Of a stretch of DNA of 64,000 nt, positions 11,188-25,292 are shown one piece after another. The stretch covers positions 45,649-109,648 of the forward strand of contig JAEUTA010000011.1 of assembly GCA_016788205.1 (NCBI GenBank), read 5' to 3'. A program made the translations under genes and the position numbers. Source of the stretch: Flavobacteriales bacterium. Lineage in GTDB: Bacteria; Bacteroidota; Bacteroidia; Flavobacteriales_F; PHOS-HE28. The notes below the pieces were generated by a model. That model saw only the letters and a program-made list of their open reading frames with translations. It did not search any database and was not told the origin of the DNA. Position 1 is the first letter of the stretch; every line of letters starts with the position of its first letter.

Positions 11188-13923
11188 ATGGATCCCTTCC
11201 TTCATCGCCTGGCCGCACAGCTGCTGCACCACCACCGGCATGCGATGGATCGCGTGGCCGTGGTGCTGCCCAGTCGCCGGGCCGGTTCGTACCTGCGAAA
11301 ATACCTCGCCCAGTTGCACGGCGGTGCGCTGTGGAGCCCGGAGATCATCGATATCGGTGGTTTCATGCAGCGCTGCTCCGGCATGGCCCAAGGCACTACC
11401 ATAGACCTGCTCTTCCTGCTCTACGAGGCGCACCTGGGCACCGCCGGTGCAGCGGCCGAGCCGCTGGCCGAATTCCTGGAATGGGCGCCCGTGACGCTGC
11501 GTGACATGAGCGAGGTGGACGCCCACCTGCTGGACCACGCCCAACTGTACCGCGACCTGCGCGAATACCACGAGCTGGACGAATGGAGCTTCCGCCTGGG
11601 CCAGGACCTTAGCACCGCCCAGGAACGCCTGAACCACCAGTGGCGCGGTACCAAGGACCTGCACCACGCCTTTAGCGCGCTGATGCACGAACGGCGCATG
11701 GGCACCTCGGGCTTCGTGGCGCGCGCCTGTGCGGAGCAGGCGTTGGCGAACACCCTCTCCGCGCCGTGGACGAGCATCTGGTTCGCCGGCCTCAATGCGC
11801 TGGACCCGGCCTCCACCACCGTGGTGAAGCGCTTGCAGGCGGAAGGGCGCGCCCGTGTGGCGTGGGATGCCGATACCTACTACCTGGACGACGCACGTCA
11901 GGAGGCCGGGCGCTACCTGCGCCGCTCGCGTGCCGCGCTGGGCCCCGGCGAGCTGCCCGCCCCCTCCGCCATACGCGACCGGCCCCGCGCCATCCGCGTG
12001 GTGGCCGCCCCGCAGCCCTTCGCCCAAGCCACCTACGTGGCCCAGCGGCTGGCCGAGCTGACCCCCGAAGAGCGTGCGCGCACCGCCGTGGTACTGGGCG
12101 ATGAGCACCTGCTGCTACCCCTGCTGGAACAGCTTGCGCCGGACGTGGGCCCCATCAACGTGACCATGGGGCTGCCGCTGAAAGCCCTGCCCGTGAGCGG
12201 GCTGGTGGAAGCCTACATCGCCGTGCTGGAGAGCGCCGCCGCCGACGGGCGGTATGCGTTGCACGCCGTGGAAGCGGTGCTGAGCCATCCGTTCGTGAAC
12301 GAAGGCACCACCACCGCGCGCACCATCGCCGCGTTGCGCGCGGAGCAGCGGGCGCAGGTGAGCGCCGAACGCATCGTGGCCGTGCTGGCGGAGCAGGGTT
12401 CGCCGCATGCCGCCTTGCTGGCGCCCTGCCTGAAGCCGTGGAACGCCGACCTGCGCACGCTGTCCGATCGCTTCATCGCCCTCATCACTTGGGCCCGCGC
12501 CTGCGCCGCCAGCGACCGCACCGTGCAGGAGCAACTGTTCCAGGTGGCGCGCCTGCAACAACGGATGGACCGCACCTTGGAACGCCTGCAGGTACACCAC
12601 CTGGACCTGCGCACCTACGCCAGTATACGAGAGCGCCTGCTGCGCGAAGAGCGCATCGCCTTCCTGGGCGAACCCCTGCAAGGGCTGCAGCTGATGGGCG
12701 TGCTGGAGACCCGCGCGCTGGACCACGAGCGCGTGATCATGCTGTCCGTGAACGAAGGCGTGCTGCCCCAGGCCGCTGCCGCGCAGAGTTGGATACCGCA
12801 CGATGTGCGGCGCCACTACAAGCTGCCCCTCGCGGCCGATGGCGAGGCCATCTCCGCCTACCACTTCTACCGCTGCATGCACCTGGCGCAGGACGTGGAA
12901 CTGGTGCACGCCGCGGGCGATGGCGCCGAGCCGGGCGAACCGTCGCGCTTCATCGCCCAGTGGCAGCACGAGGTGGTGGGTCATTCGCGCACCACCGTGC
13001 AGCAGCACGCCGTGGCCGCCCACACCGCCGCGCGCGCTACCGTGCCGGTGCGTGTGGCCAAGGACGCCGCCGTGCTGGCACGCCTGCAGGCCCTGTGCCA
13101 ACGCGGCCTCTCCCCCAGCGCCATCGGTACCTGGCTGCGTTGCCCGCTGGACTTCTACTTCCGCTATGTGCTGGGCATCCGCGACACCGAGGTGGCCGAT
13201 GGCACCCTGGGCAGCGATGTGCTGGGCGATGCCGTACACCAGGCGCTGGACGGCCTGCTGACCCCGCACCTGGGCCAGGTGCTGAGGCCCGAAGCGGTGG
13301 ACGCCCTGCGGCCGCAGGTGCACCGCGCCCTTACCGACCGCCTGGCCCAACACATCTCGCGTGATGCGCTGGAGCACGGGCACTTCCGCCTGCGCCGCGA
13401 AATGGCCACCCGCGCGGTAGAGACCTACCTGGAGGCCGAACGCGACCGCTGTGCCGCAACGCCCACCACCTTGGTGGCCGTGGAACTGGATGTGAAGGCC
13501 ACCCTGTCCAATGGCGTGCTCCTGAAAGGCCGCTGCGACCGCATCGACCTGCGCGATGGTACCCTGACCGTGCTGGACGTGAAGACCGGGGCCGTGCGCG
13601 AGAACGACCTGCGCCTGCCGGACCTGGAGCGCGCCACGCTGACGCCCGCCCGACGCTACGCGCTGCAATTGCTGATCTACCTCTGGGCCTACCTGCACCA
13701 ACACCCGGAGGTGCCACAGGCCCGTGCCGGTGTCATCCCCCTGCAACGGCCCTCGCAGGCCGCGGGCGAATTCCTCACCATCGCTGGCGAAGAGGTGATC
13801 TCCCGCGCCCAGTTGCCCGCCATCGATGCCCTGCTGGCCCAGGTGGTGGACGCGATGCTGGACCCCGACACGCCCTTCCAACACGACCCGGAAAGCACGT
13901 ACTGTTTGTGTTGTGTGGGATAG
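11188..13923 (+). CDS. addB: PD-(D/E)XK nuclease family protein with inactive helicase-like N-terminus (AddB-like)
   Basis: VVLPSRRAG, GEPLQGLQLMGVLETRALD, LSPSAI..W.RCPLDFYFRY, GRCDRID...LDVKTG, LQL.IY. Confidence 0.85.
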   Translation: MDPFLHRLAAQLLHHHRHAMDRVAVVLPSRRAGSYLRKYLAQLHGGALWSPEIIDIGGFMQRCSGMAQGTTIDLLFLLYEAHLGTAGAAAEPLAEFLEWAPVTLRDMSEVDAHLLDHAQLYRDLREYHELDEWSFRLGQDLSTAQERLNHQWRGTKDLHHAFSALMHERRMGTSGFVARACAEQALANTLSAPWTSIWFAGLNALDPASTTVVKRLQAEGRARVAWDADTYYLDDARQEAGRYLRRSRAALGPGELPAPSAIRDRPRAIRVVAAPQPFAQATYVAQRLAELTPEERARTAVVLGDEHLLLPLLEQLAPDVGPINVTMGLPLKALPVSGLVEAYIAVLESAAADGRYALHAVEAVLSHPFVNEGTTTARTIAALRAEQRAQVSAERIVAVLAEQGSPHAALLAPCLKPWNADLRTLSDRFIALITWARACAASDRTVQEQLFQVARLQQRMDRTLERLQVHHLDLRTYASIRERLLREERIAFLGEPLQGLQLMGVLETRALDHERVIMLSVNEGVLPQAAAAQSWIPHDVRRHYKLPLAADGEAISAYHFYRCMHLAQDVELVHAAGDGAEPGEPSRFIAQWQHEVVGHSRTTVQQHAVAAHTAARATVPVRVAKDAAVLARLQALCQRGLSPSAIGTWLRCPLDFYFRYVLGIRDTEVADGTLGSDVLGDAVHQALDGLLTPHLGQVLRPEAVDALRPQVHRALTDRLAQHISRDALEHGHFRLRREMATRAVETYLEAERDRCAATPTTLVAVELDVKATLSNGVLLKGRCDRIDLRDGTLTVLDVKTGAVRENDLRLPDLERATLTPARRYALQLLIYLWAYLHQHPEVPQARAGVIPLQRPSQAAGEFLTIAGEEVISRAQLPAIDALLAQVVDAMLDPDTPFQHDPESTYCLCCVG

Positions 13924-14642: not shown

Positions 14643-15416
14643 TTAGCGGTAGATCACCTTGTGCGAGGTGGTGTTGCCGTTGCGCTTCAGTTTCACGTAA
14701 TAGGCACCGGCACCCATGGTGCTCAGGTCCATCTCCTTGCGGTAGGTGCCTTCCAGGTCGCGCACCGTTTCGTTGTACACGGCCTGGCCGATGCTGTTGA
14801 TGATCTCCACCGTTACATCACCCTTTTCGCCGTTCGCGAAGCTGAGGGTGAAGCGGCCGTTGTTGGGGTTGGGTTGGATGAGCACGCTGCCGTCTTCCGC
14901 TGCGGGCGCGAGGCCTTTGTAGATGATGCCCGTGCGATCCGTGCCACCGCAGGCGGCGTAGAAGTTCGCGTTGTTCTTGCGGTCGCTCGTGTAGGCATCG
15001 TTCACCAGCTCGAACTCGCCCTGGCCGGTGACGGGGATGCGCGCGATGGTGTATTCGCGGCCCGCCTGCCAGCTGTTGCCGCTGCTGGCCATGGGGTTCA
15101 TGCCGAAACCGGCATAGACCGCGTAGCGCAGGCCACCCTCTTCGCGGATGTCGCCCGAGCGTTGCACGCCGATGTAAGAGGCCACGGCCTCGTCCTGCAC
15201 GCTCTCGCCCAGGGTGGCACCGGAATTGGCATCCCACCGAACGGTGAAGACCAGCGAAGAGAAGATGCCGGAGAAGTCGGCCTCGGGGCGCACCTTCACC
15301 TCCAACACACCGTTGTTCTGGTAGAGGCCGATGTCCACAGCGTTCTGGGCGCTGGCGAGGCCGGCGGTACCCGCCAGCAGAAAGGTGAATGCGGTGGTGC
15401 GTAGGGTCCGGTTCAT
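14643..15416 (-). CDS. T9SS type A sorting domain protein
   Basis: Signal peptide ending ASA-Q; C-terminal PNPNNG...IINSIGQ...GAYYVKL...KVI. Confidence 0.88.
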   Translation of the reverse strand: MNRTLRTTAFTFLLAGTAGLASAQNAVDIGLYQNNGVLEVKVRPEADFSGIFSSLVFTVRWDANSGATLGESVQDEAVASYIGVQRSGDIREEGGLRYAVYAGFGMNPMASSGNSWQAGREYTIARIPVTGQGEFELVNDAYTSDRKNNANFYAACGGTDRTGIIYKGLAPAAEDGSVLIQPNPNNGRFTLSFANGEKGDVTVEIINSIGQAVYNETVRDLEGTYRKEMDLSTMGAGAYYVKLKRNGNTTSHKVIYR

Positions 15417-15482
15417 GGATACGACTGGTTTTGTGCTCCGTTGGACCGGCTTGCGAGGGGCTAACGGTGCGTTATGGAGGCC

Positions 15483-15578: not shown

Positions 15579-15611
15579 AAAACCGAACAGGGGCTCCTTG
15601 CGGAGCCCCTG
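15579..15611 (-). terminator. Rho-independent terminator
   Basis: Perfect 10-bp stem CAGGGGCTCC-GCAA-GGAGCCCCTG followed by TTCGGTTTT. Confidence 0.82.
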
Positions 15612-15670
15612 CGCGGTAAACCTGCAAGGAATATGGAACCAGATTAGGTCAGGAAGACCGACCTCTCTGT
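15579..15670 (-). ncRNA. Candidate small regulatory RNA (~90 nt)
   Basis: Lies between an ECF-type promoter (15677-15701) and a GCAA-loop terminator; has a 5' hairpin AGGTCGG/CTGACCT and no ATG. Confidence 0.5.
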
Positions 15671-15676
15671 AACCAA

Positions 15677-15701
15677 GACGGCGCCCGTTGAAAAGGGTTG
15701 C
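15677..15701 (-). promoter_or_regulatory. Putative ECF sigma promoter GCAACC-N15-CGTC
   Basis: GCAACCCTTTTCAACGGGCGCCGTC, i.e. the AAC-N16-CGT geometry typical of ECF promoters. Confidence 0.6.
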
Positions 15702-15718
15702 CAGCCCGACGAAAAATT

Positions 15719-16423
15719 TCAGGCTGTGAACTTGTAACCCACCCCCCGGATGGAATGGAAGTGCCTGGGCTCGCGGGGGTCCGGCTCGAAATACTTGCGG
15801 AAACCGACGATGAAATTGTCCACCGTGCGGGTGGTGGGGAACACGTTGTAACCCCACACCTTCTGCAGGATCTCTTCGCGTGAGACCACATCGCCCTGGC
15901 GCTCCAGCAAGAGGCGCAACAGCATCATCTCCCGTTGGCTCAGCGTCTTCACCAACCCGCCTTGGCCGCGCACCTCGTAACTCTGGAAATCCACATGGTT
16001 ATCGCCGAAGGAATAGGCGGAGAGCACCGTGTTGGTGCCCCGCTCACCCTTGCGGGGCAGCAACTTGGCCACGCGCAACAGCAGCTCTTCCAGTTCGAAG
16101 GGTTTGCCCAAGTGGTCCTCACCGGCTTTGAGGCCGCGTATACGGTCCGCCGTGGCGGTGCGTGCGGTAAGGAAGAGCACCGGCGTGGCGTTGCCCTCCA
16201 GGCGGATGGTCTCCACCACGGCGAAACCGTCCATTCCCGGGAGCATCACATCCATCACCACCACGTCGTAATGGGCGCCGCGTAGCCGTTGCAACGCATC
16301 GGGGCCGTTGACCACGGTGGTGACATCGTAGCCCTCCAGCTCGAAGTTGAGGCGCAGCGCCGAACGCAGCGCGTCCTCATCTTCCACCAAGAGCAGACGG
16401 GGCTTGGCCACGGCTTCTTCCAT
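15719..16423 (-). CDS. OmpR/PhoB-family response regulator
   Basis: LLVEDE, MDVMLPGMDG, FLTA, KPF, winged helix TRTVDNFI...SIRGVGYKF. Start ATG 16423, not the 924-aa ORF start. Confidence 0.93.
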   Translation of the reverse strand: MEEAVAKPRLLLVEDEDALRSALRLNFELEGYDVTTVVNGPDALQRLRGAHYDVVVMDVMLPGMDGFAVVETIRLEGNATPVLFLTARTATADRIRGLKAGEDHLGKPFELEELLLRVAKLLPRKGERGTNTVLSAYSFGDNHVDFQSYEVRGQGGLVKTLSQREMMLLRLLLERQGDVVSREEILQKVWGYNVFPTTRTVDNFIVGFRKYFEPDPREPRHFHSIRGVGYKFTA

Positions 16424-16444
16424 GGCGCAAAGATGGACCACGGC

Positions 16445-16452
16445 TACCTTTG
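16445..16452 (+). promoter_or_regulatory. Primary sigma -7 element (TACCTTTG) of the men operon
   Basis: Exact TAnnTTTG, 17 nt before the menI ATG. Confidence 0.7.
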
Positions 16453-16469: not shown

Positions 16470-16889
16470 ATGCGTTTCACACCCCAGCATGCCCAGGCCG
16501 CCGAGTCCATGCGGACCAATACCCTGGTGGAGCATTTGGACATCCGGTTCGGGGTGGATGCTGAAGGGCGCCTGCAAGCCTCCATGCCCGTGGACCAACG
16601 TACCCACCAACCTATGGGTCTGTTGCACGGCGGAGCCACGGCCGCACTGGCGGAAACGCTGGGTAGCGTGGGTTCGGCCATGCTGATAGACCTGAGCACG
16701 CAGGGTACCGTAGGTATGGAGATCACCGCCAACCACCTGCGCGGAGTGAAGACCGGCCGTGTAACGGCCACCGGCGAGCTGGTGCACCAAGGGAACAAGA
16801 CCCATGTGTGGGACATCCGTGTACACGATGAGGCCGGTAGGCTCATCGCCATCTGCCGTCTAACGAACATGATCATCGACCGCCGATGA
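16470..16889 (+). CDS. menI: Hotdog-fold thioesterase (DHNA-CoA hydrolase)
   Basis: HQPMGLLHGGA..ALAETLGS, EITANHL; first gene of the men operon. Confidence 0.85.
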   Translation: MRFTPQHAQAAESMRTNTLVEHLDIRFGVDAEGRLQASMPVDQRTHQPMGLLHGGATAALAETLGSVGSAMLIDLSTQGTVGMEITANHLRGVKTGRVTATGELVHQGNKTHVWDIRVHDEAGRLIAICRLTNMIIDRR

Positions 16890-17992
16890 GCACCACGCCC
16901 GCCCTGCGCCTCGCGCTGCGCCACTGCATCAGCGAAGGCATCACTTTCGCCGCGTTCCGAACCCCGGGAGGACCCGTCACCCTTTGGGCCCAACAAACAC
17001 CCGATCTGGACCGCGCGGAGAACGGCCTGTGGTGGGAGCTGAACGATGTGTTCCTGCTCTCGCCCTTCCTGCTCAGCGACCGCACACCGCTGATCCGTTC
17101 CGATGTGGAATTGACCTTCGGCGATGCCGAGCCGCACTGGCAACGCCTGCTGGAGTGTACCGGGACCAGCGAACGACCCATGGCCACACGGCTGCCCGCC
17201 ACACCACGCGCGGCCTTCGAGGCAGCGGTGCAACAGGCCCGCAACGAATGCGCTGCGGGAGCGGTGGAGAAGATCGTCCTGTCGCGCACCGTGGATCTGG
17301 CGATCGGCGAAGCGGAAGCACCGGCCCTGTTCATGGAAGCCGTGCGCGCACGGCCCGATGCCTTCGTGGCCTTGGTGATGACACCCGAGCACGGCCTGTG
17401 GCTCGGCGCCACGCCGGAACGGCTGATCGTGGCCGAGAACGACACCGTGCAGGTGGACGCCCTGGCCGGTACCGCGCCCAGCGCCAGCGCCGCCAGCGAA
17501 GCCCAGGAATGGGGTCAGAAGGAACGGCACGAGCAACGCGTGGTGGCCAAGAGCATCGCGGGTACGCTGATCGACCTGGACGCCCGTCACATCACCATCG
17601 ACGGTCCCGAGGTGCTGCACGCCGGGCCGGTGGCCCACCTGCGCACCCGCATCAGCGCCCAGGTGGATGGACGCGCGGTGGAAGAGTTGGTCGGCGTGGT
17701 ACACCCCACCCCTGCCGTGTGCGGCATACCCACCGCGAAGGCACGCGAACGCATCCAGGCGCTGGAAGACCGCGACCGTGAACTGTACGCCGGTTTCTGG
17801 GGACCGTGGAGCGCGGACGGACGCATGGAACTGTTCGTGAACATCCGCTGCATGCGGGTGCACGCACACCACGCCGAACTGCGCGTAGGTGCCGGCATCA
17901 CCGCTGGATCGGTGCCTGCCTTGGAATGGGAAGAGACCGAACACAAGGCCGAGAGCTGGTTGCAACTGATGCGAACACCGATACCGGCCTGA
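16886..17992 (+). CDS. menF: Isochorismate synthase
   Basis: KIVLSR, WLGATPERL, ALAGT, HPTPAVCG, FVNIRC, GAGIT. Confidence 0.9.
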   Translation: MSTTPALRLALRHCISEGITFAAFRTPGGPVTLWAQQTPDLDRAENGLWWELNDVFLLSPFLLSDRTPLIRSDVELTFGDAEPHWQRLLECTGTSERPMATRLPATPRAAFEAAVQQARNECAAGAVEKIVLSRTVDLAIGEAEAPALFMEAVRARPDAFVALVMTPEHGLWLGATPERLIVAENDTVQVDALAGTAPSASAASEAQEWGQKERHEQRVVAKSIAGTLIDLDARHITIDGPEVLHAGPVAHLRTRISAQVDGRAVEELVGVVHPTPAVCGIPTAKARERIQALEDRDRELYAGFWGPWSADGRMELFVNIRCMRVHAHHAELRVGAGITAGSVPALEWEETEHKAESWLQLMRTPIPA

Positions 17993-17995
17993 TCC

Positions 17996-19678
17996 ATGAC
18001 GAGCGACCATTTCGCCGCTTCCGAACTGGCGCGCTTGTGTGCCGCAAAGGGGGTGAAGCATGCGGTGATCAGCCCTGGCAGCCGCAGCGCGCCCTTGGTG
18101 ATCGCCTTCAACAAGCAGGACGGTATCGAGTGCCTGCAAGTCATCGATGAACGCAGCGCTGCCTTCTTCGCACTCGGTATGGCGCAGCAGCTGCACGCGC
18201 CAGTGGCGCTGATCTGCACCAGCGGCAGTGCGGTACTTAACTACGGCCCCGCGATCGCCGAAGCGTTCTACCAACGCATCCCCTTGTTGGTGATCACCGC
18301 TGATCGCCCCGAAGAATGGGTGGACCAGGGTGAAGGACAGGCGATCCGTCAGCAAGGCGTGCTCGCACTGCACATGAAACGCAGCGTGCAGCTTCCGCGG
18401 ATGACGAGCGATGAACTCGCGCGCTGGCATTGCGGACGCTTGATCAACGAAGCGATCGACACCACCTTGCTCCCGGTCGCGGGACCGGTGCATGTGAACG
18501 TACCGTTCGCCGAGCCGTTGTATGGAACGGTTGAAGAAGTGGGCACATCGCGCTTCATCGCACCGGTGATGACAGAATCCTTCATCCTACCCGATCATGC
18601 GCGTTGGTTGCTCGGGCAGCTCTCGGCCTGCAAGAAGGTGATGGTGCTCGCCGGACAAGGCGTGTGGAGCGATGGTATGCGCAAGCAACTCGCGCAATTC
18701 GCATCGCTCCCGCAGGTGACCGTACACACCGAAGCGACCAGCAACCTGGACGACACCGCTTTCATCACCTGCATCGACCGGGTGATCGAGGCGGTGAGCG
18801 AGAAGAACGAGAAAGACCTGCGTCCCGAGCTCTTGATCACCTTCGGAGGTGCCGTGGTGAGCAAACGCATCAAGACCTTGTTGCGCAAATGGGAACCGGC
18901 GCAGCACTGGAACGTGGATGCCGGCCAGCGTCACTACGACACCTACCAGAGCCTGACGCACGACATCGCGGTGAGCCCGGAGATCTTCTTCGCGCAGCTC
19001 GCTTCCGGCGTACAAGCGAACGACAGCTTCTACGGCGAGGCGTGGAAGATGATGGACCAGAGCACGCGCGGCAAACACAACCGTATCATCGCCGATGCGC
19101 CTTTCTGTGACCTCACCGTTTTCAACACGCTGAACGACCGCATCCCCGGTGACAGTGCAGTGCATCTCGCGAACAGTACACCAGCGCGTTATGCGCAGCT
19201 CTTCGATCGCGTGCGCGGCCATCACTGGTTCGGCAACCGTGGAACAAGTGGCATCGATGGTTGTACGAGCACGGCTGTCGGTGCAGCGTTCGCCACCAAA
19301 CAGATCACCACGCTCATCACTGGCGATACGGCATTCTGTTACGACAGCAACGCCTTCTGGAACGACCACCTCTCGCCGAACCTGAAGGTGATCGTGATCG
19401 ACAACGGTGGTGGCAACATCTTCCGTTTCATCGAAGGGCCGGATAAGGATGCCGATCTGCTGCAATGGTTCGAGGCGCCACATGCACGCAGCATCGAGAA
19501 GCTGGTGCAGAGCTTCGACCTACCCTACTACCATGCGAACGACCAGGCATCGCTGGAAGCAGGGATCGACAAGCTGTACGCTGTTCACGACAAGGCAGCT
19601 GTACTGCACGTCACGACGGACGCACAGACCTCACCGCAAGTGCTCCGTGACTACTTCAATCAACTCCGCACTTCATGA
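17996..19678 (+). CDS. menD: SEPHCHC synthase
   Basis: [42 protein letters not shown]. Confidence 0.96.
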
Positions 19679-21853: not shown

Positions 21854-22905
21854 TCGCCGCGCGCTGGATCGAACGCACCCTGCAACCCCGCTTCGAGCTG
21901 GGCACTTCCAAAGGGCCGATCAACGCACGCACCGTTTGGTATCTGCTAGCGTGGCATACCGAACGGCCTGAGCTCATCGGCATCGGTGAAGCGGCGCTCT
22001 TCCCCGGCCACAGCAAGGAGTTCCCGGCGGATGTGCGCACGAAGCTGATCGAACTATGCGCGGACACCACGAATTGGCAACGCCGGTTGAACACCGACCT
22101 GATCGATGTTCCGAGCGTGCGTTTCGCGGTGGAGCAATGCCTACGTGACCTCGGCGTGAGCGGCACCAAGGAACTCTTCCCTTCCGCCTTCACCCTTGGA
22201 AAGGAACCCATTCCCATCAATGGCTTGGTGTGGATGGGCGACAAGGCCACGATGAAGCAGCGCATCCGAGAGCAGATCGAAAAGGGCTTCACCACGGTGA
22301 AGATGAAGATCGGTGCGATCGGGATCGATGATGAGCTGGAACTTCTACGTGATGTGCGCAGTGAGTTCCGTGCCAGTGACATCACGCTGCGTGTGGACGC
22401 GAACGGTGCGTTCAGTGCACAACAAGCGCCGGACATATTGAAGCGCCTTGCTGATCTTGACGTACACAGCATCGAGCAACCCGTACACGCCGGTTTGTAC
22501 GAAGTGATGGCGGAACTCTGCGAGCGGTCGCCGGTGCCGATCGCATTGGACGAGGACCTCATCGGCCTGAACACCCGCGATGCGAAAGTGGATCTGCTGG
22601 ACAACGTGAAGCCACAATACATCGTGATCAAGCCGAGCCTCGTGGGCGGTTGGGTGGCCACGCAGGAGTGGATCGACCTCGCGAAGGCACGCCACATCAG
22701 CTGGTGGATCACTTCGGCGCTGGAGAGCAGCATCGGGCTGAACGCCATCGCGCAATACACGGCGACGTTGAACGTGGGCATGCCGCAAGGACTTGGTACC
22801 GGCAGCGTGTACACGAACAACATCCCTTCTCCCCTGCTCGCCGAGCGCGGCGCGCTGCACTATCGTCCGGAAGTGGCTTGGGATCTTTCGCTCTTCCACC
22901 AATGA
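21850..22905 (+). CDS. menC: o-succinylbenzoate synthase
   Basis: KMKIG, RVDANG, IEQP, IALDE, IKPSL, TSALES. Confidence 0.92.
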   Translation: MIAARWIERTLQPRFELGTSKGPINARTVWYLLAWHTERPELIGIGEAALFPGHSKEFPADVRTKLIELCADTTNWQRRLNTDLIDVPSVRFAVEQCLRDLGVSGTKELFPSAFTLGKEPIPINGLVWMGDKATMKQRIREQIEKGFTTVKMKIGAIGIDDELELLRDVRSEFRASDITLRVDANGAFSAQQAPDILKRLADLDVHSIEQPVHAGLYEVMAELCERSPVPIALDEDLIGLNTRDAKVDLLDNVKPQYIVIKPSLVGGWVATQEWIDLAKARHISWWITSALESSIGLNAIAQYTATLNVGMPQGLGTGSVYTNNIPSPLLAERGALHYRPEVAWDLSLFHQ

Positions 22906-23987: not shown

Positions 23988-24193
23988 TCTGGTTCTTCGC
24001 GCTCCTGCTTCTCTACGCGTTCGCTTTCGTGATCGTCGTATGGCCGATCCACTGGATGTGGCACACGTTCACGCAGGACGGCACATACGATAAACGCTTC
24101 TACCGACAGGCCTCGTACTGGAAGCTCTACTTCTGGGTCTTCGGCACGGCGATGCTGCTCACCTTCGGCCTGAACATCCTGCGCGGACCGTAG
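23984..24193 (+). CDS. Small two-TM hypothetical membrane protein
   Basis: ATGA overlap with the menE stop; two hydrophobic segments. Confidence 0.65.
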   Translation: MIWFFALLLLYAFAFVIVVWPIHWMWHTFTQDGTYDKRFYRQASYWKLYFWVFGTAMLLTFGLNILRGP

Positions 24194-24200
24194 AAGGCAC

Positions 24201-25292
24201 CTACTTCATGTTGTTCACCGCCTCCTTGTCCAACGGCGCCTCGTCATCGTCGTCGCCCATCGGCTTGGTCACCGTGTAGGTACGCCACTTCTCCAGCACG
24301 GCCTGCATATCGGCGGGTAGCGGACTCTCGAAGTGCATGCGCTTGCCGGTGATCGGATGGTCGATGTCCAGCGTACGTGCGTGCAGCGCCTGGCGTGGCA
24401 GCACCTTGAAACAGTTCTCCACGAACTGGCGGTACTTGGTGAAGGTGGTGCCCTTCAGGACGCGATCACCGCCGTACGCGGCATCGTTGAAGAGCGGATG
24501 TCCCGTCCACTGCATGTGCACCCGGATCTGGTGCGTGCGGCCCGTCTCCAACTTGCACTCCACCAGTGTGATGTAACGGAAACGCTCGAGCACCTTCCAC
24601 CGTGTCAGCGCCGGTTTGCCTTGATCACCGTCCGGGAAGACGAATTGGACCGTGCGGTCCTTCACGCTGCGTCCGATATGGCCTTCGATGAGGCCCTCAT
24701 CTTCGTTGAAGTCGCCCCAGACCAAAGCGTTGTAACGGCGGTCGCTCGTGCGATCGAAGAACTGGCGTGCCAGGTGCGTAAGCGCTTCCTCCGTCTTGCC
24801 TACGACCATGACACCGCTGGTATCCTTGTCCAGGCGATGGACCAGACCCGGACGTGGGATCTCCGCACCAGGCGTACTCGGCAGCTTGCCGAAGTGGAAC
24901 AGCAAGGCGTTCACCAAAGTGCCGGTCCAGTTACCATGGCCGGGGTGTACCACAAGGCCCGCCTGCTTGTTGATGACCAGGATATGATCGTCCTCATACA
25001 GCACTTCCAAGGGGATATCCTCCGGAAGGATCTCCACTTCGCGCTGGGGATACGGCAGCACGATGCTGATCTCATCGTCCGGCTTCACCTTCTGGCTGGG
25101 CTTTGCGCTCTTGCCGTTCACGAGCACATTGCCCGCTTTGGCCGCTACCTGGATGCGGTTGCGTGACGTGTTCGCCAGCCGGTCGAACAGGAACTTGTCC
25201 AGCCGGATCTGCGACTGCTTGGGGTCGCAGACGATGCGGTGGTGCTCGTAGAGCTCCTGTTCCTCCGCTGAATTGTCGAGTTCCTGGTCCAT
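24201..25292 (-). CDS. rluD: RluA/RluD family pseudouridine synthase
   Basis: S4 domain RLDKFL, NKQAGLVVHPG, VHRLDKDTSG, LETGRTHQIRVH. Start ATG 25292. Confidence 0.92.
   Translation of the reverse strand: MDQELDNSAEEQELYEHHRIVCDPKQSQIRLDKFLFDRLANTSRNRIQVAAKAGNVLVNGKSAKPSQKVKPDDEISIVLPYPQREVEILPEDIPLEVLYEDDHILVINKQAGLVVHPGHGNWTGTLVNALLFHFGKLPSTPGAEIPRPGLVHRLDKDTSGVMVVGKTEEALTHLARQFFDRTSDRRYNALVWGDFNEDEGLIEGHIGRSVKDRTVQFVFPDGDQGKPALTRWKVLERFRYITLVECKLETGRTHQIRVHMQWTGHPLFNDAAYGGDRVLKGTTFTKYRQFVENCFKVLPRQALHARTLDIDHPITGKRMHFESPLPADMQAVLEKWRTYTVTKPMGDDDDEAPLDKEAVNNMK

Follow-up and report, generated by a model that had tools for sequence, protein, structure and literature searches.

A stretch of 64,000 nt from a Flavobacteriales genome (contig JAEUTA010000011.1; hereafter the window, to which all coordinates refer unless another contig is named) carries on its minus strand, just behind the gene of an orphan OmpR-type response regulator, an element that we consider quite likely to be the gene of a non-coding small RNA of about 90 nt, with its own extracytoplasmic function (ECF) promoter and its own terminator, which would act by pairing with mRNAs. 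Sequence comparison across related genomes established the gene, its promoter type, a motif shared with a regulon, the structure of the RNA and its independence from the neighbouring genes. We probably have here a new small-RNA family, well supported and of a kind already known, with a probable sigma factor identified and with expression and function predicted. The original prediction, which had described a separate non-coding unit with an ECF-type promoter and a terminator behind the orphan regulator, is borne out by comparative evidence from two orders, while its proposed seed and its proposed pairing with the regulator start did not survive.

Conservation and structure of the element

The element is conserved beyond chance in two orders of Bacteroidia. 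BLAST detected the stretch in 22 of 24 genomes of the same genus and in none of 16 genomes of other families, and in all 20 fetched loci of relatives both promoter blocks were identical and exactly 15 nt apart, with the spacer sequence between them differing. A pattern for the RNA core alone gave 109 matches among species-representative genomes; 105 of these matches had the strict promoter at most 110 nt upstream, three did not, and one was cut by the edge of the locus. The matching genomes are titled in their records as uncultured 'Flavobacteriales' or 'Bacteroidetes' metagenome-assembled genomes, whereas the three matches without the promoter (L050, L067, L089) come from other phyla and were put down to chance. 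With a covariance model from which the promoter had been excluded, the RNA was found in 124 of the 132 genomes of the window's family, which is the whole order in the genome collection used, including 90 of 92 high-quality genomes; the eight genomes without a match are 69-93% complete. Matches were single per genome except in G042, G101 and G128, and the second match in G042 and G101 overlaps the first on the opposite strand.

A covariance search at the level of the class detected the RNA in all three genomes of a second family, f20, and in none of 144 genomes of the other families sampled. These low-G+C copies (36-45% G+C), although found by a promoter-free model, still carry GGCAACC-N15-CGTC, and they share the 5' hairpin, a GGUUUC box, an identical UUCCUUGCAGGUUUAC and a canonical terminator stem followed by 6-8 U. 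When promoter and core were combined in one pattern, 17 of 401 class genomes spanning 84 families matched, namely the window's own, 12 of 12 of family f1 and 4 of 5 of f20 (none of the 383 others), and the reversed control of this pattern gave no matches in the same 401 genomes. Within the second, low-G+C order, the pattern occurred in 20 of 37 genomes of f20, 6 of 8 of f87 and 1 of 12 of f92, and in none of 144 genomes of 13 other families. Chance cannot account for the element, because it recurs in 124 of 132 genomes of one order and in three low-G+C families of another, with the promoter retained and 24 of 26 base pairs compensated.

The predicted RNA (15579-15668, minus strand) was recognised by its fold, by covariance-model matches in both orders and by its lack of a conserved open reading frame (ORF). 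As many as 66 of 104 copies contain no closed ORF, an ATG of any kind occurs in only 40 of the 104, and the window's copy has none; a small protein gene was rejected, as no conserved ORF with a start codon exists. Promoter blocks, hairpin, pyrimidine-rich linker and GCAA-loop terminator are all present at the minus-strand positions where the original prediction had placed them, in a unit that, as it had said, has no ATG. The RNA would open with a 5' hairpin, H1 (15640-15669), with the loop UCUUC, in which an inner part AGGTCGG-TCTTC-CTGACCT (15664-15646) is enclosed by an outer CAGA/TCTG stem (15669-15640). Single-sequence folds, which are independent of any alignment, yield this hairpin in 93 of 94 distinct copies. 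Its loop, UCUUCC, is more than 90% conserved in the window's order and differs in the low-G+C order. Then follow an invariant box GGUUCC (15635-15640; GGUUUC in the low-G+C order), a short A/U linker, and the core UUCCUUGCAGGUUU (15618-15631), which is predicted to be single-stranded and within which CCUUGCAGG is invariant in all 104 aligned copies from both orders. GGUU(C/U)C and the UU after it are nearly invariant among the same 104 copies.

The 3' end is formed by an intrinsic terminator, ACCG..CAGGGGCUCC-GCAA-GGAGCCCCUG..CGGU followed by U's (15579-15617), a G+C-rich hairpin with a U-run behind it. Its inner stem is a perfect 10 bp with a GCAA loop (15611-15588), extended by ACCG/CGGT to 15617-15582 with the T's reaching 15579, and a terminator scan picks the same hairpin (15612-15587, 11 pairs, 8 of them G-C). 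The U-run is short in the window's copy (UUUU), absent in some relatives (e.g. GGTTCCAG) and 6-8 U long in the low-G+C homologues.

Folding and covariation both support this structure. A 140-nt stretch folds at -61.2 kcal/mol (z -5.46) and the 90-nt predicted RNA at -43.9 kcal/mol (z -5.63), and none of 200 shuffles equalled either value. For covariation, 104 copies from both orders were fitted to a model made from 23 equal-length copies with a hand-written structure; this route was taken because MAFFT misaligns the variable 5' hairpin. In the resulting alignment 93.0% of the cells were paired, compared with 71.7% in shuffles, and the covariation score was 0.538 versus 0.202, a value reached by none of 500 shuffles and by no register in which the partners were slid by 1-3 columns (maximum 0.097), with the proviso, which tells against our interpretation, that an alignment fitted by a model to the structure favours that structure. 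Double-sided compensatory changes were present in 24 of 26 base pairs: all 12 modelled pairs of H1 vary, 11 of them with compensatory changes, and 13 of 14 terminator pairs show such changes, with 97% of cells paired. An alternative pairing, AAUCUG/CAGGUU (15619-15645, minus strand), which would loop out GUUCCAUAUUCCUUG, is seen in a fold begun at 15668, in competition with the outer H1 stem; as its letters are invariant, covariation cannot judge it.

Conservation in relatives had been proposed as a test of promoter, stems and seed alike. Promoter blocks and covarying stems are indeed kept, but the seed that had been read in the linker, TTCCATATT against AATATGGAA, is not, as this ATAT linker region between the GGUUCC box and the core varies in sequence and length from species to species. 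Nor can pairing with the start of the regulator mRNA be maintained, since just 2 of 77 relatives begin ATGGAAGAA (one further locus has no start) and many do not even begin ATGGAA.

Promoter, regulon and candidate targets

The promoter is of the form AAC-N16-CGT, with two invariant blocks and a spacer fixed in length and free in sequence, and so has the architecture of ECF (group 4) promoters, whose AAC and CGT blocks are about 16-17 nt apart. AAC in the -35 block is a hallmark of ECF promoters, and the -35 box here, GGCAACC (15696-15702), is invariant across homologues. It is separated by exactly 15 nt (15681-15695), with an information content of about zero across 143 promoter windows, from the -10 box CGTCTT (15675-15680, with CGTC at 15680-15677), in which TT follows CGTC in 121 of the 143 windows. 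A T-rich block upstream of the -35 box is kept in both orders. CGT in the -10 box is likewise an ECF hallmark according to the part of the F. psychrophilum study available to us (PMC9723704). From the promoter profile we predict transcription to start at 15668 (within 2 nt), at the A of a semi-conserved CA located 8-9 nt after CGTC.

The same motif heads other genes, and in both orders. In five low-G+C genomes the strict motif occurred at 21 sites, versus 10 for a reversed control; seven of these belong to RNA genes, five to ECF sigma genes and three to genes of a DUF5684 membrane protein, two fall inside the regulator coding sequence and four lie elsewhere. In all five genomes an orthologous ECF sigma gene is preceded by it, at a distance of 6-17 nt from the start. 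Genome G000 of the window's order has an orthologue of this sigma with 60% identity (contig C1, about 22306-22885, minus strand), which both Pfam and NCBIfam class as ECF; upstream of its gene stand GGCAACG-N15-CGTCTC, at -55, and GGCATCC-N14-CGTCTT, at -140. In five further genomes of this order a distal GGCATCC or GACAACC-N15-CGTCT is present in all five, with a proximal strict copy in two. Taken over the window's order, six of six sigma genes have the motif with no more than one mismatch in the -35 box, one of them with a 14-nt spacer, and three of six have a proximal GGCAAC(C/G)-N15-CGTC. ECF sigmas usually autoregulate, as the portion of PMC3817407 at hand describes, and the motif precedes its presumed cognate sigma gene in both orders. 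Behind the sigma gene lies the gene of a 418-aa protein with PKD domains and a type-B sorting domain of the type IX secretion system (T9SS), which, judged from its sequence, may be membrane-spanning and is a putative anti-sigma.

The second constant member is the DUF5684 gene, which has the motif in every one of 32 genomes from the window's order (29 with GGCAAC[C/T], 3 with AGCAACC) and in 29 of 30 genomes of f20, including all eight in which the RNA pattern was not found. In G000 this gene (contig C2, about 24105-24545, minus strand; locus L239/L245) has AGCAACC-N15-CGTC about 80 nt upstream. The motif is thus, by sequence comparison, a real and conserved promoter type of a small regulon made up of sigma, DUF5684 and RNA, and because it heads both the ECF sigma and the DUF5684 genes in both orders, we place the RNA in the regulon of the C1-type sigma, the autoregulated ECF factor that is most likely to drive it. 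A further possible member is a 998-aa secreted protein, one of six strict sites in G000 (contig C31, about 124180, minus strand), where GGCAACC-N15-CGTC stands directly before the gene; similar motifs (GGCAACT-N15-CGTC, GACAACC-N16-CGTC) occupy the same place in both relatives, of five, that have an orthologue.

Another ECF sigma of G000 (contig C29, 119559-120146, minus strand) had been the first candidate and was dropped. Its motif, GGCAACGTT-N14-CGTC, present upstream in G000 and in 3 of 5 relatives, corresponds to AAC-N17-CGT, and the C1-type sigma is preferred because its spacing matches and its motif holds in both orders. The low-G+C orthologues of the C29 sigma have xCAAT-N16/17-CGTT, resembling motif SM6 of Flavobacterium psychrophilum, and a strong Shine-Dalgarno-like GAGGAGG before the start, unusual in a class mostly without such sequences. 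An extra GGCAACC-N15-CGTC found 77-80 nt upstream of the RNA promoter in L195 (G235) and L191 (G573) lies inside the regulator coding sequence (PRQP...SVR) and was set aside as a codon coincidence.

The mRNA of the DUF5684 gene is also the candidate target, a lineage-specific and tentative one. In the window's order, 20 of 30 distinct DUF5684 leaders contain at least 7 nt complementary to the UUCCUUGCAGGUUU core (shuffled mean 0.87), and 24 of 30 have GGAACC near the leader 5' end (shuffled mean 0.65); GGAACC matches GGUUCC of the RNA, and the core complement, mostly AAACCUGC(A) at 4-7 nt before the AUG, matches GCAGGUUU. Variants occur: two genomes have CCUGCAAGGAA in the first part of the leader, and in three AUGGAACC overlaps the start codon. 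Occlusion of start codons, as originally proposed, would thus have one candidate leader in which the core complement stands next to the AUG, in one order, and the proposed link to envelope stress is suggested by the make-up of the regulon.

We picture the following course of events. The sigma factor would be released, presumably by an envelope or surface signal, and the RNA would accumulate, with its protective 5' hairpin, its single-stranded pyrimidine-rich stretch (GGUUCC ... UUCCUUGCAGGUUU) and its terminator hairpin. The single-stranded core may then find purine-rich sequences in the leaders or start regions of mRNAs, pair with them in trans and alter translation or stability, and read-through from the terminator-less regulator gene could be a second source of the same RNA, of the 3' untranslated region (UTR) type. 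Going a step further, and with considerably less confidence, we suggest that RNA, ECF sigma and DUF5684 form a conserved surface-stress circuit of Bacteroidia, in which the sigma drives a membrane protein together with a small RNA that pairs, without Hfq or a Shine-Dalgarno sequence, with the outermost 5' end of leaders and with their part close to the AUG in a feed-forward loop, with CCUUGCAGG fixed by a shared target or an RNA-binding protein.

Besides the fitted alignment mentioned above, several points weigh against our interpretation. Genome-wide, sites of the strict motif outnumber those of its reversed control by a factor of no more than about two, from which we conclude that the regulon is small or uses variants, and two of the six G000 sites, before an epimerase gene on contig C13 and a 141-aa ORF on contig C14, were conserved in 0 of 5 and 0 of 2 cases, respectively; contigs C2 and C25 also bear strict sites. 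Among the f20 DUF5684 leaders, 0 of 30 have a core complement of at least 7 nt (shuffled mean 1.45), and no target was found to be kept in both orders. Duplex energies were no better than those of shuffles (z -0.8 in G000, where 54 of 300 were as good, and +0.4, -0.4 and +1.4 in three low-G+C genomes). The shuffle test on the DUF5684 leaders overstates significance because the compared leaders are related by descent, and the order of the two leader boxes would not allow a single continuous duplex. Finally, the assembled contigs of one biofilm metatranscriptome run (in which 0.07 of the sampled words were present) miss the element, a result that is neutral either way because assembled contigs cannot show small RNAs.

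Other searches for pairing partners gave nothing further. The exact complement CCTGCAAGGAA was not enriched in five low-G+C genomes (14 non-self matches versus 8 in the control), and at eight loci the genes next to the RNA had no complementary site. UGGUUCCAUAUUCCU of the RNA has a perfect 15-nt complement at 78279-78294 (plus strand) of G000 contig C29, which was discarded, since this DNA occurs in 0 of 18 same-genus genomes and about 0.1 such matches are expected by chance; the match falls within a possible 108-aa ORF that has SulP-transporter and carbonic-anhydrase genes downstream of it, and is either chance or strain-specific. Likewise, a pairing of the H1 loop with the start region of the C29 sigma, seen by eye, showed no co-variation and was abandoned.

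The strongest competing account, which we regard as improbable though not negligible, keeps the ECF-driven RNA and lets it act through protein binding or titration, or through structural mimicry, in place of mRNA pairing. The strict conservation of CCUUGCAGG and the near-invariance of GGUU(C/U)C over 104 copies from two orders of very different G+C content would fit such a role, as would the want of a complementary target conserved in both, and the tandem multi-copy arrays described below would suit a dosage-dependent sponge. Against it, the DUF5684 leaders of one order are complementary to exactly these invariant boxes, and no candidate protein partner was identified.

Independence from the neighbouring genes

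A markedly less probable explanation would make the element no more than the 3' UTR plus terminator of the regulator mRNA, its blocks being conserved for another reason, e.g. as a binding site of the regulator. The regulator gene (15719-16423, minus strand; OmpR/PhoB type, 234 aa, with a Response_reg receiver domain and a Trans_reg_C winged-helix domain) starts with ATG GAA GAA at 16423, in agreement with the original prediction, and its stop codon TGA (15721-15719) is followed by a 16-nt A/T-rich tract (15703-15718) that leads to the -35 box; the conserved GGCAACC thus begins 16 nt past the stop, and GCAACC, as first described, 17 nt past it, at 15701. As this tract contains no hairpin, the regulator gene lacks a separate terminator ahead of the RNA, and read-through must end at the RNA's hairpin. 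Moreover, the regulator ends just upstream of the RNA in 100 of 105 loci, and its orthologue (49-59% identical, full-length matches) is directly upstream in 17 low-G+C loci. However, promoter, body and terminator are kept in 11 low-G+C loci from which the regulator is absent, and in L035 and L046 a 405-aa oxidoreductase gene intervenes between regulator and RNA. In most of the regulator-less loci the RNA adjoins the same thioesterase-menF-menD genes, the AddB-like gene or both, while L144 and L173 are arranged otherwise.

Three tandem copies of the RNA, each with its own promoter and terminator and with no regulator gene adjoining, occur in G271, G533 and G543 (loci L141, L163 and L161/L184), spaced 164-178 nt apart in the first two genomes and 279 and 517 nt in the third. 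G562 has two copies on separate contigs, and a second match in G552 looks like chance. In addition, the same two-block motif heads the sigma and DUF5684 genes elsewhere, and the promoter blocks are not direct repeats, which we take to be the kind of site that OmpR-type regulators bind.

Still less probable is a 5' leader or attenuator acting in cis on the downstream gene (14643-15416, minus strand), whose 257-aa product has a C-terminal T9SS sorting domain (Por_Secre_tail) and which lies outside the unit. A T9SS-tail gene is downstream on the same strand in 64 of 105 loci, and a promoter followed by a terminator does resemble an attenuator. A riboswitch or attenuator should in every case precede its target gene and share that gene's strand, and this is not so here: the next gene is convergent in 12 loci, where it encodes about 800 aa and ends 66-167 nt past the start of the GGTTCC box (at most 95 nt in 11 of them), and the neighbours differ in the low-G+C genomes. 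Furthermore, tandem copies are each terminated, and past the terminator conservation is lost over the roughly 160 nt that lead to the T9SS-tail gene. Convergent neighbours, the intervening gene, regulator-less loci and tandem copies together exclude both a mere 3' UTR and a 5' leader, and thereby support, from sequence comparison, the INDEPENDENCE of the RNA gene from its neighbours. Least of all would we expect the promoter to be other than ECF-type, for although CTGGCAAC resembles the -24 box consensus of sigma-54 promoters (TGGCA...), the GC dinucleotide expected 10 nt after GG is absent (the commonest there are AA in 20, CA in 18 and CG in 15 of 143 windows), so that sigma-54 was rejected, while a housekeeping promoter would require a TAnnTTTG box, which the regulator and the divergent gene beside it have and the RNA does not, and the motif stands on an ECF sigma gene in both orders.

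Related systems and the surrounding locus

Envelope-related small RNAs driven by ECF factors are best known from MicA and RybB, the sigma-E-dependent and Hfq-dependent RNAs of Escherichia coli and Salmonella. The RNA described here resembles them as a predicted short RNA from an ECF promoter of the sigma's regulon, with a candidate single-stranded seed, a terminator and an expected feedback on envelope or membrane mRNAs; it differs in belonging to another phylum, in having no sequence or Rfam relation to them, and in carrying its candidate seed in mid-RNA behind a 5' hairpin and not at the 5' end. To our knowledge, Bacteroidota generally have no Hfq. A second parallel is MicL, a sigma-E small RNA whose promoter lies inside the 3' part of cutC and which shares the cutC terminator. 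In both cases an ECF-driven RNA sits at the 3' end of a protein gene, with a terminator common to read-through transcripts, but here the promoter follows the stop codon, and the RNA also occurs apart from the regulator and in tandem arrays.

The nearest published case within the phylum, as far as the accessible part of the report describes it, is Rfp11 of F. psychrophilum, a structured RNA of 109 nt that is conserved in other species and has an ECF-type promoter (motif SM6, with a CGT -10 box), in a regulon that comprises a sigma/anti-sigma pair and envelope or T9SS genes (PMC9723704). The likeness is that of a structured Bacteroidota small RNA with an ECF-type promoter. In contrast, its promoter (ACAAT ... 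ATAACGTTAT) and sequence, in that same part of the report, share no box with our RNA when compared by eye, and homology was rejected on this ground; the promoter-plus-core pattern occurred only in f1 and f20 of the 84 families. FoxJ of Fusobacterium nucleatum, a sigma-E-dependent small RNA in the portion of PMC11005410 at our disposal, is likewise an ECF-sigma-plus-small-RNA module outside Proteobacteria, though from another phylum. Small RNAs of Bacteroides thetaiotaomicron such as GibS, known to us from parts of PMC7366714 and PMC10994844, come from the same class and work without classical chaperones, but the element here has no Rfam match and its pattern occurred, among the 84 families sampled, in f1 and f20 only. 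The Rfam comparison suggested by the original prediction fits its description of the element as unannotated: no Rfam 15 family was found in the window, with only chance-level matches around the element, and none was found on three low-G+C homologue loci. No published description of the RNA emerged from a search by topic or from a full-text search by core string, which matched 18 papers, the 15 listed having nothing to do with bacterial RNAs; most subscription journals were outside the scope of both.

Few small RNAs of Bacteroidota are conserved beyond the genus, and we found none in print that is tied to a defined ECF regulon across orders. The present element supplies a promoter motif, a candidate sigma, a near-universal second regulon gene (DUF5684) and an RNA with an invariant core, which makes post-transcriptional control testable in a phylum that lacks Hfq and has few Shine-Dalgarno sequences, and it offers a first functional handle on DUF5684 and on the orphan regulator locus. 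If the proposed surface-stress circuit proved true, it would give the phylum its first sigma-plus-small-RNA module followed from one order to another, testable in cultured carriers. Several low-G+C assemblies, e.g. G573 and G271, consist of just 1-4 contigs and are therefore probably from isolates; the window's own order consists of uncultured bacteria that, judging by record titles, are common in wastewater and lake metagenomes.

Both orders have a gene order in common, in which an AddB-like PD-(D/E)XK gene (11188-13923, plus strand) faces the convergent small RNA with or without the regulator (15579-16423, minus strand), followed by divergent hotdog thioesterase-menF-menD genes (16470-19678, plus strand); the T9SS-tail gene (14643-15416) is an insertion into this order, in part of the genomes. 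In the metatranscriptome run mentioned above, a 223-nt contig (four differences) matches 15212-15434 and so reaches from 18 nt ahead of the T9SS-tail gene's start into the 5' end of that gene, which shows only that the sequence of a close relative was present in the library; the same run has a foreign piece inside the regulator. For the regulator itself, no NCBIfam equivalog reached the cut-off, and no kinase gene adjoins it. Two divergent boxes of the Bacteroidota housekeeping type lie between the regulator and the thioesterase gene. The first, CATCTTTG (16428-16435, minus strand), is kept in most relatives and ends 4 nt upstream of the regulator ATG, for which reason the regulator mRNA is predicted to be leaderless; the second, TACCTTTG (16445-16452, plus strand), is 17 nt away from the thioesterase-menF-menD genes, whose ATG is at 16470.

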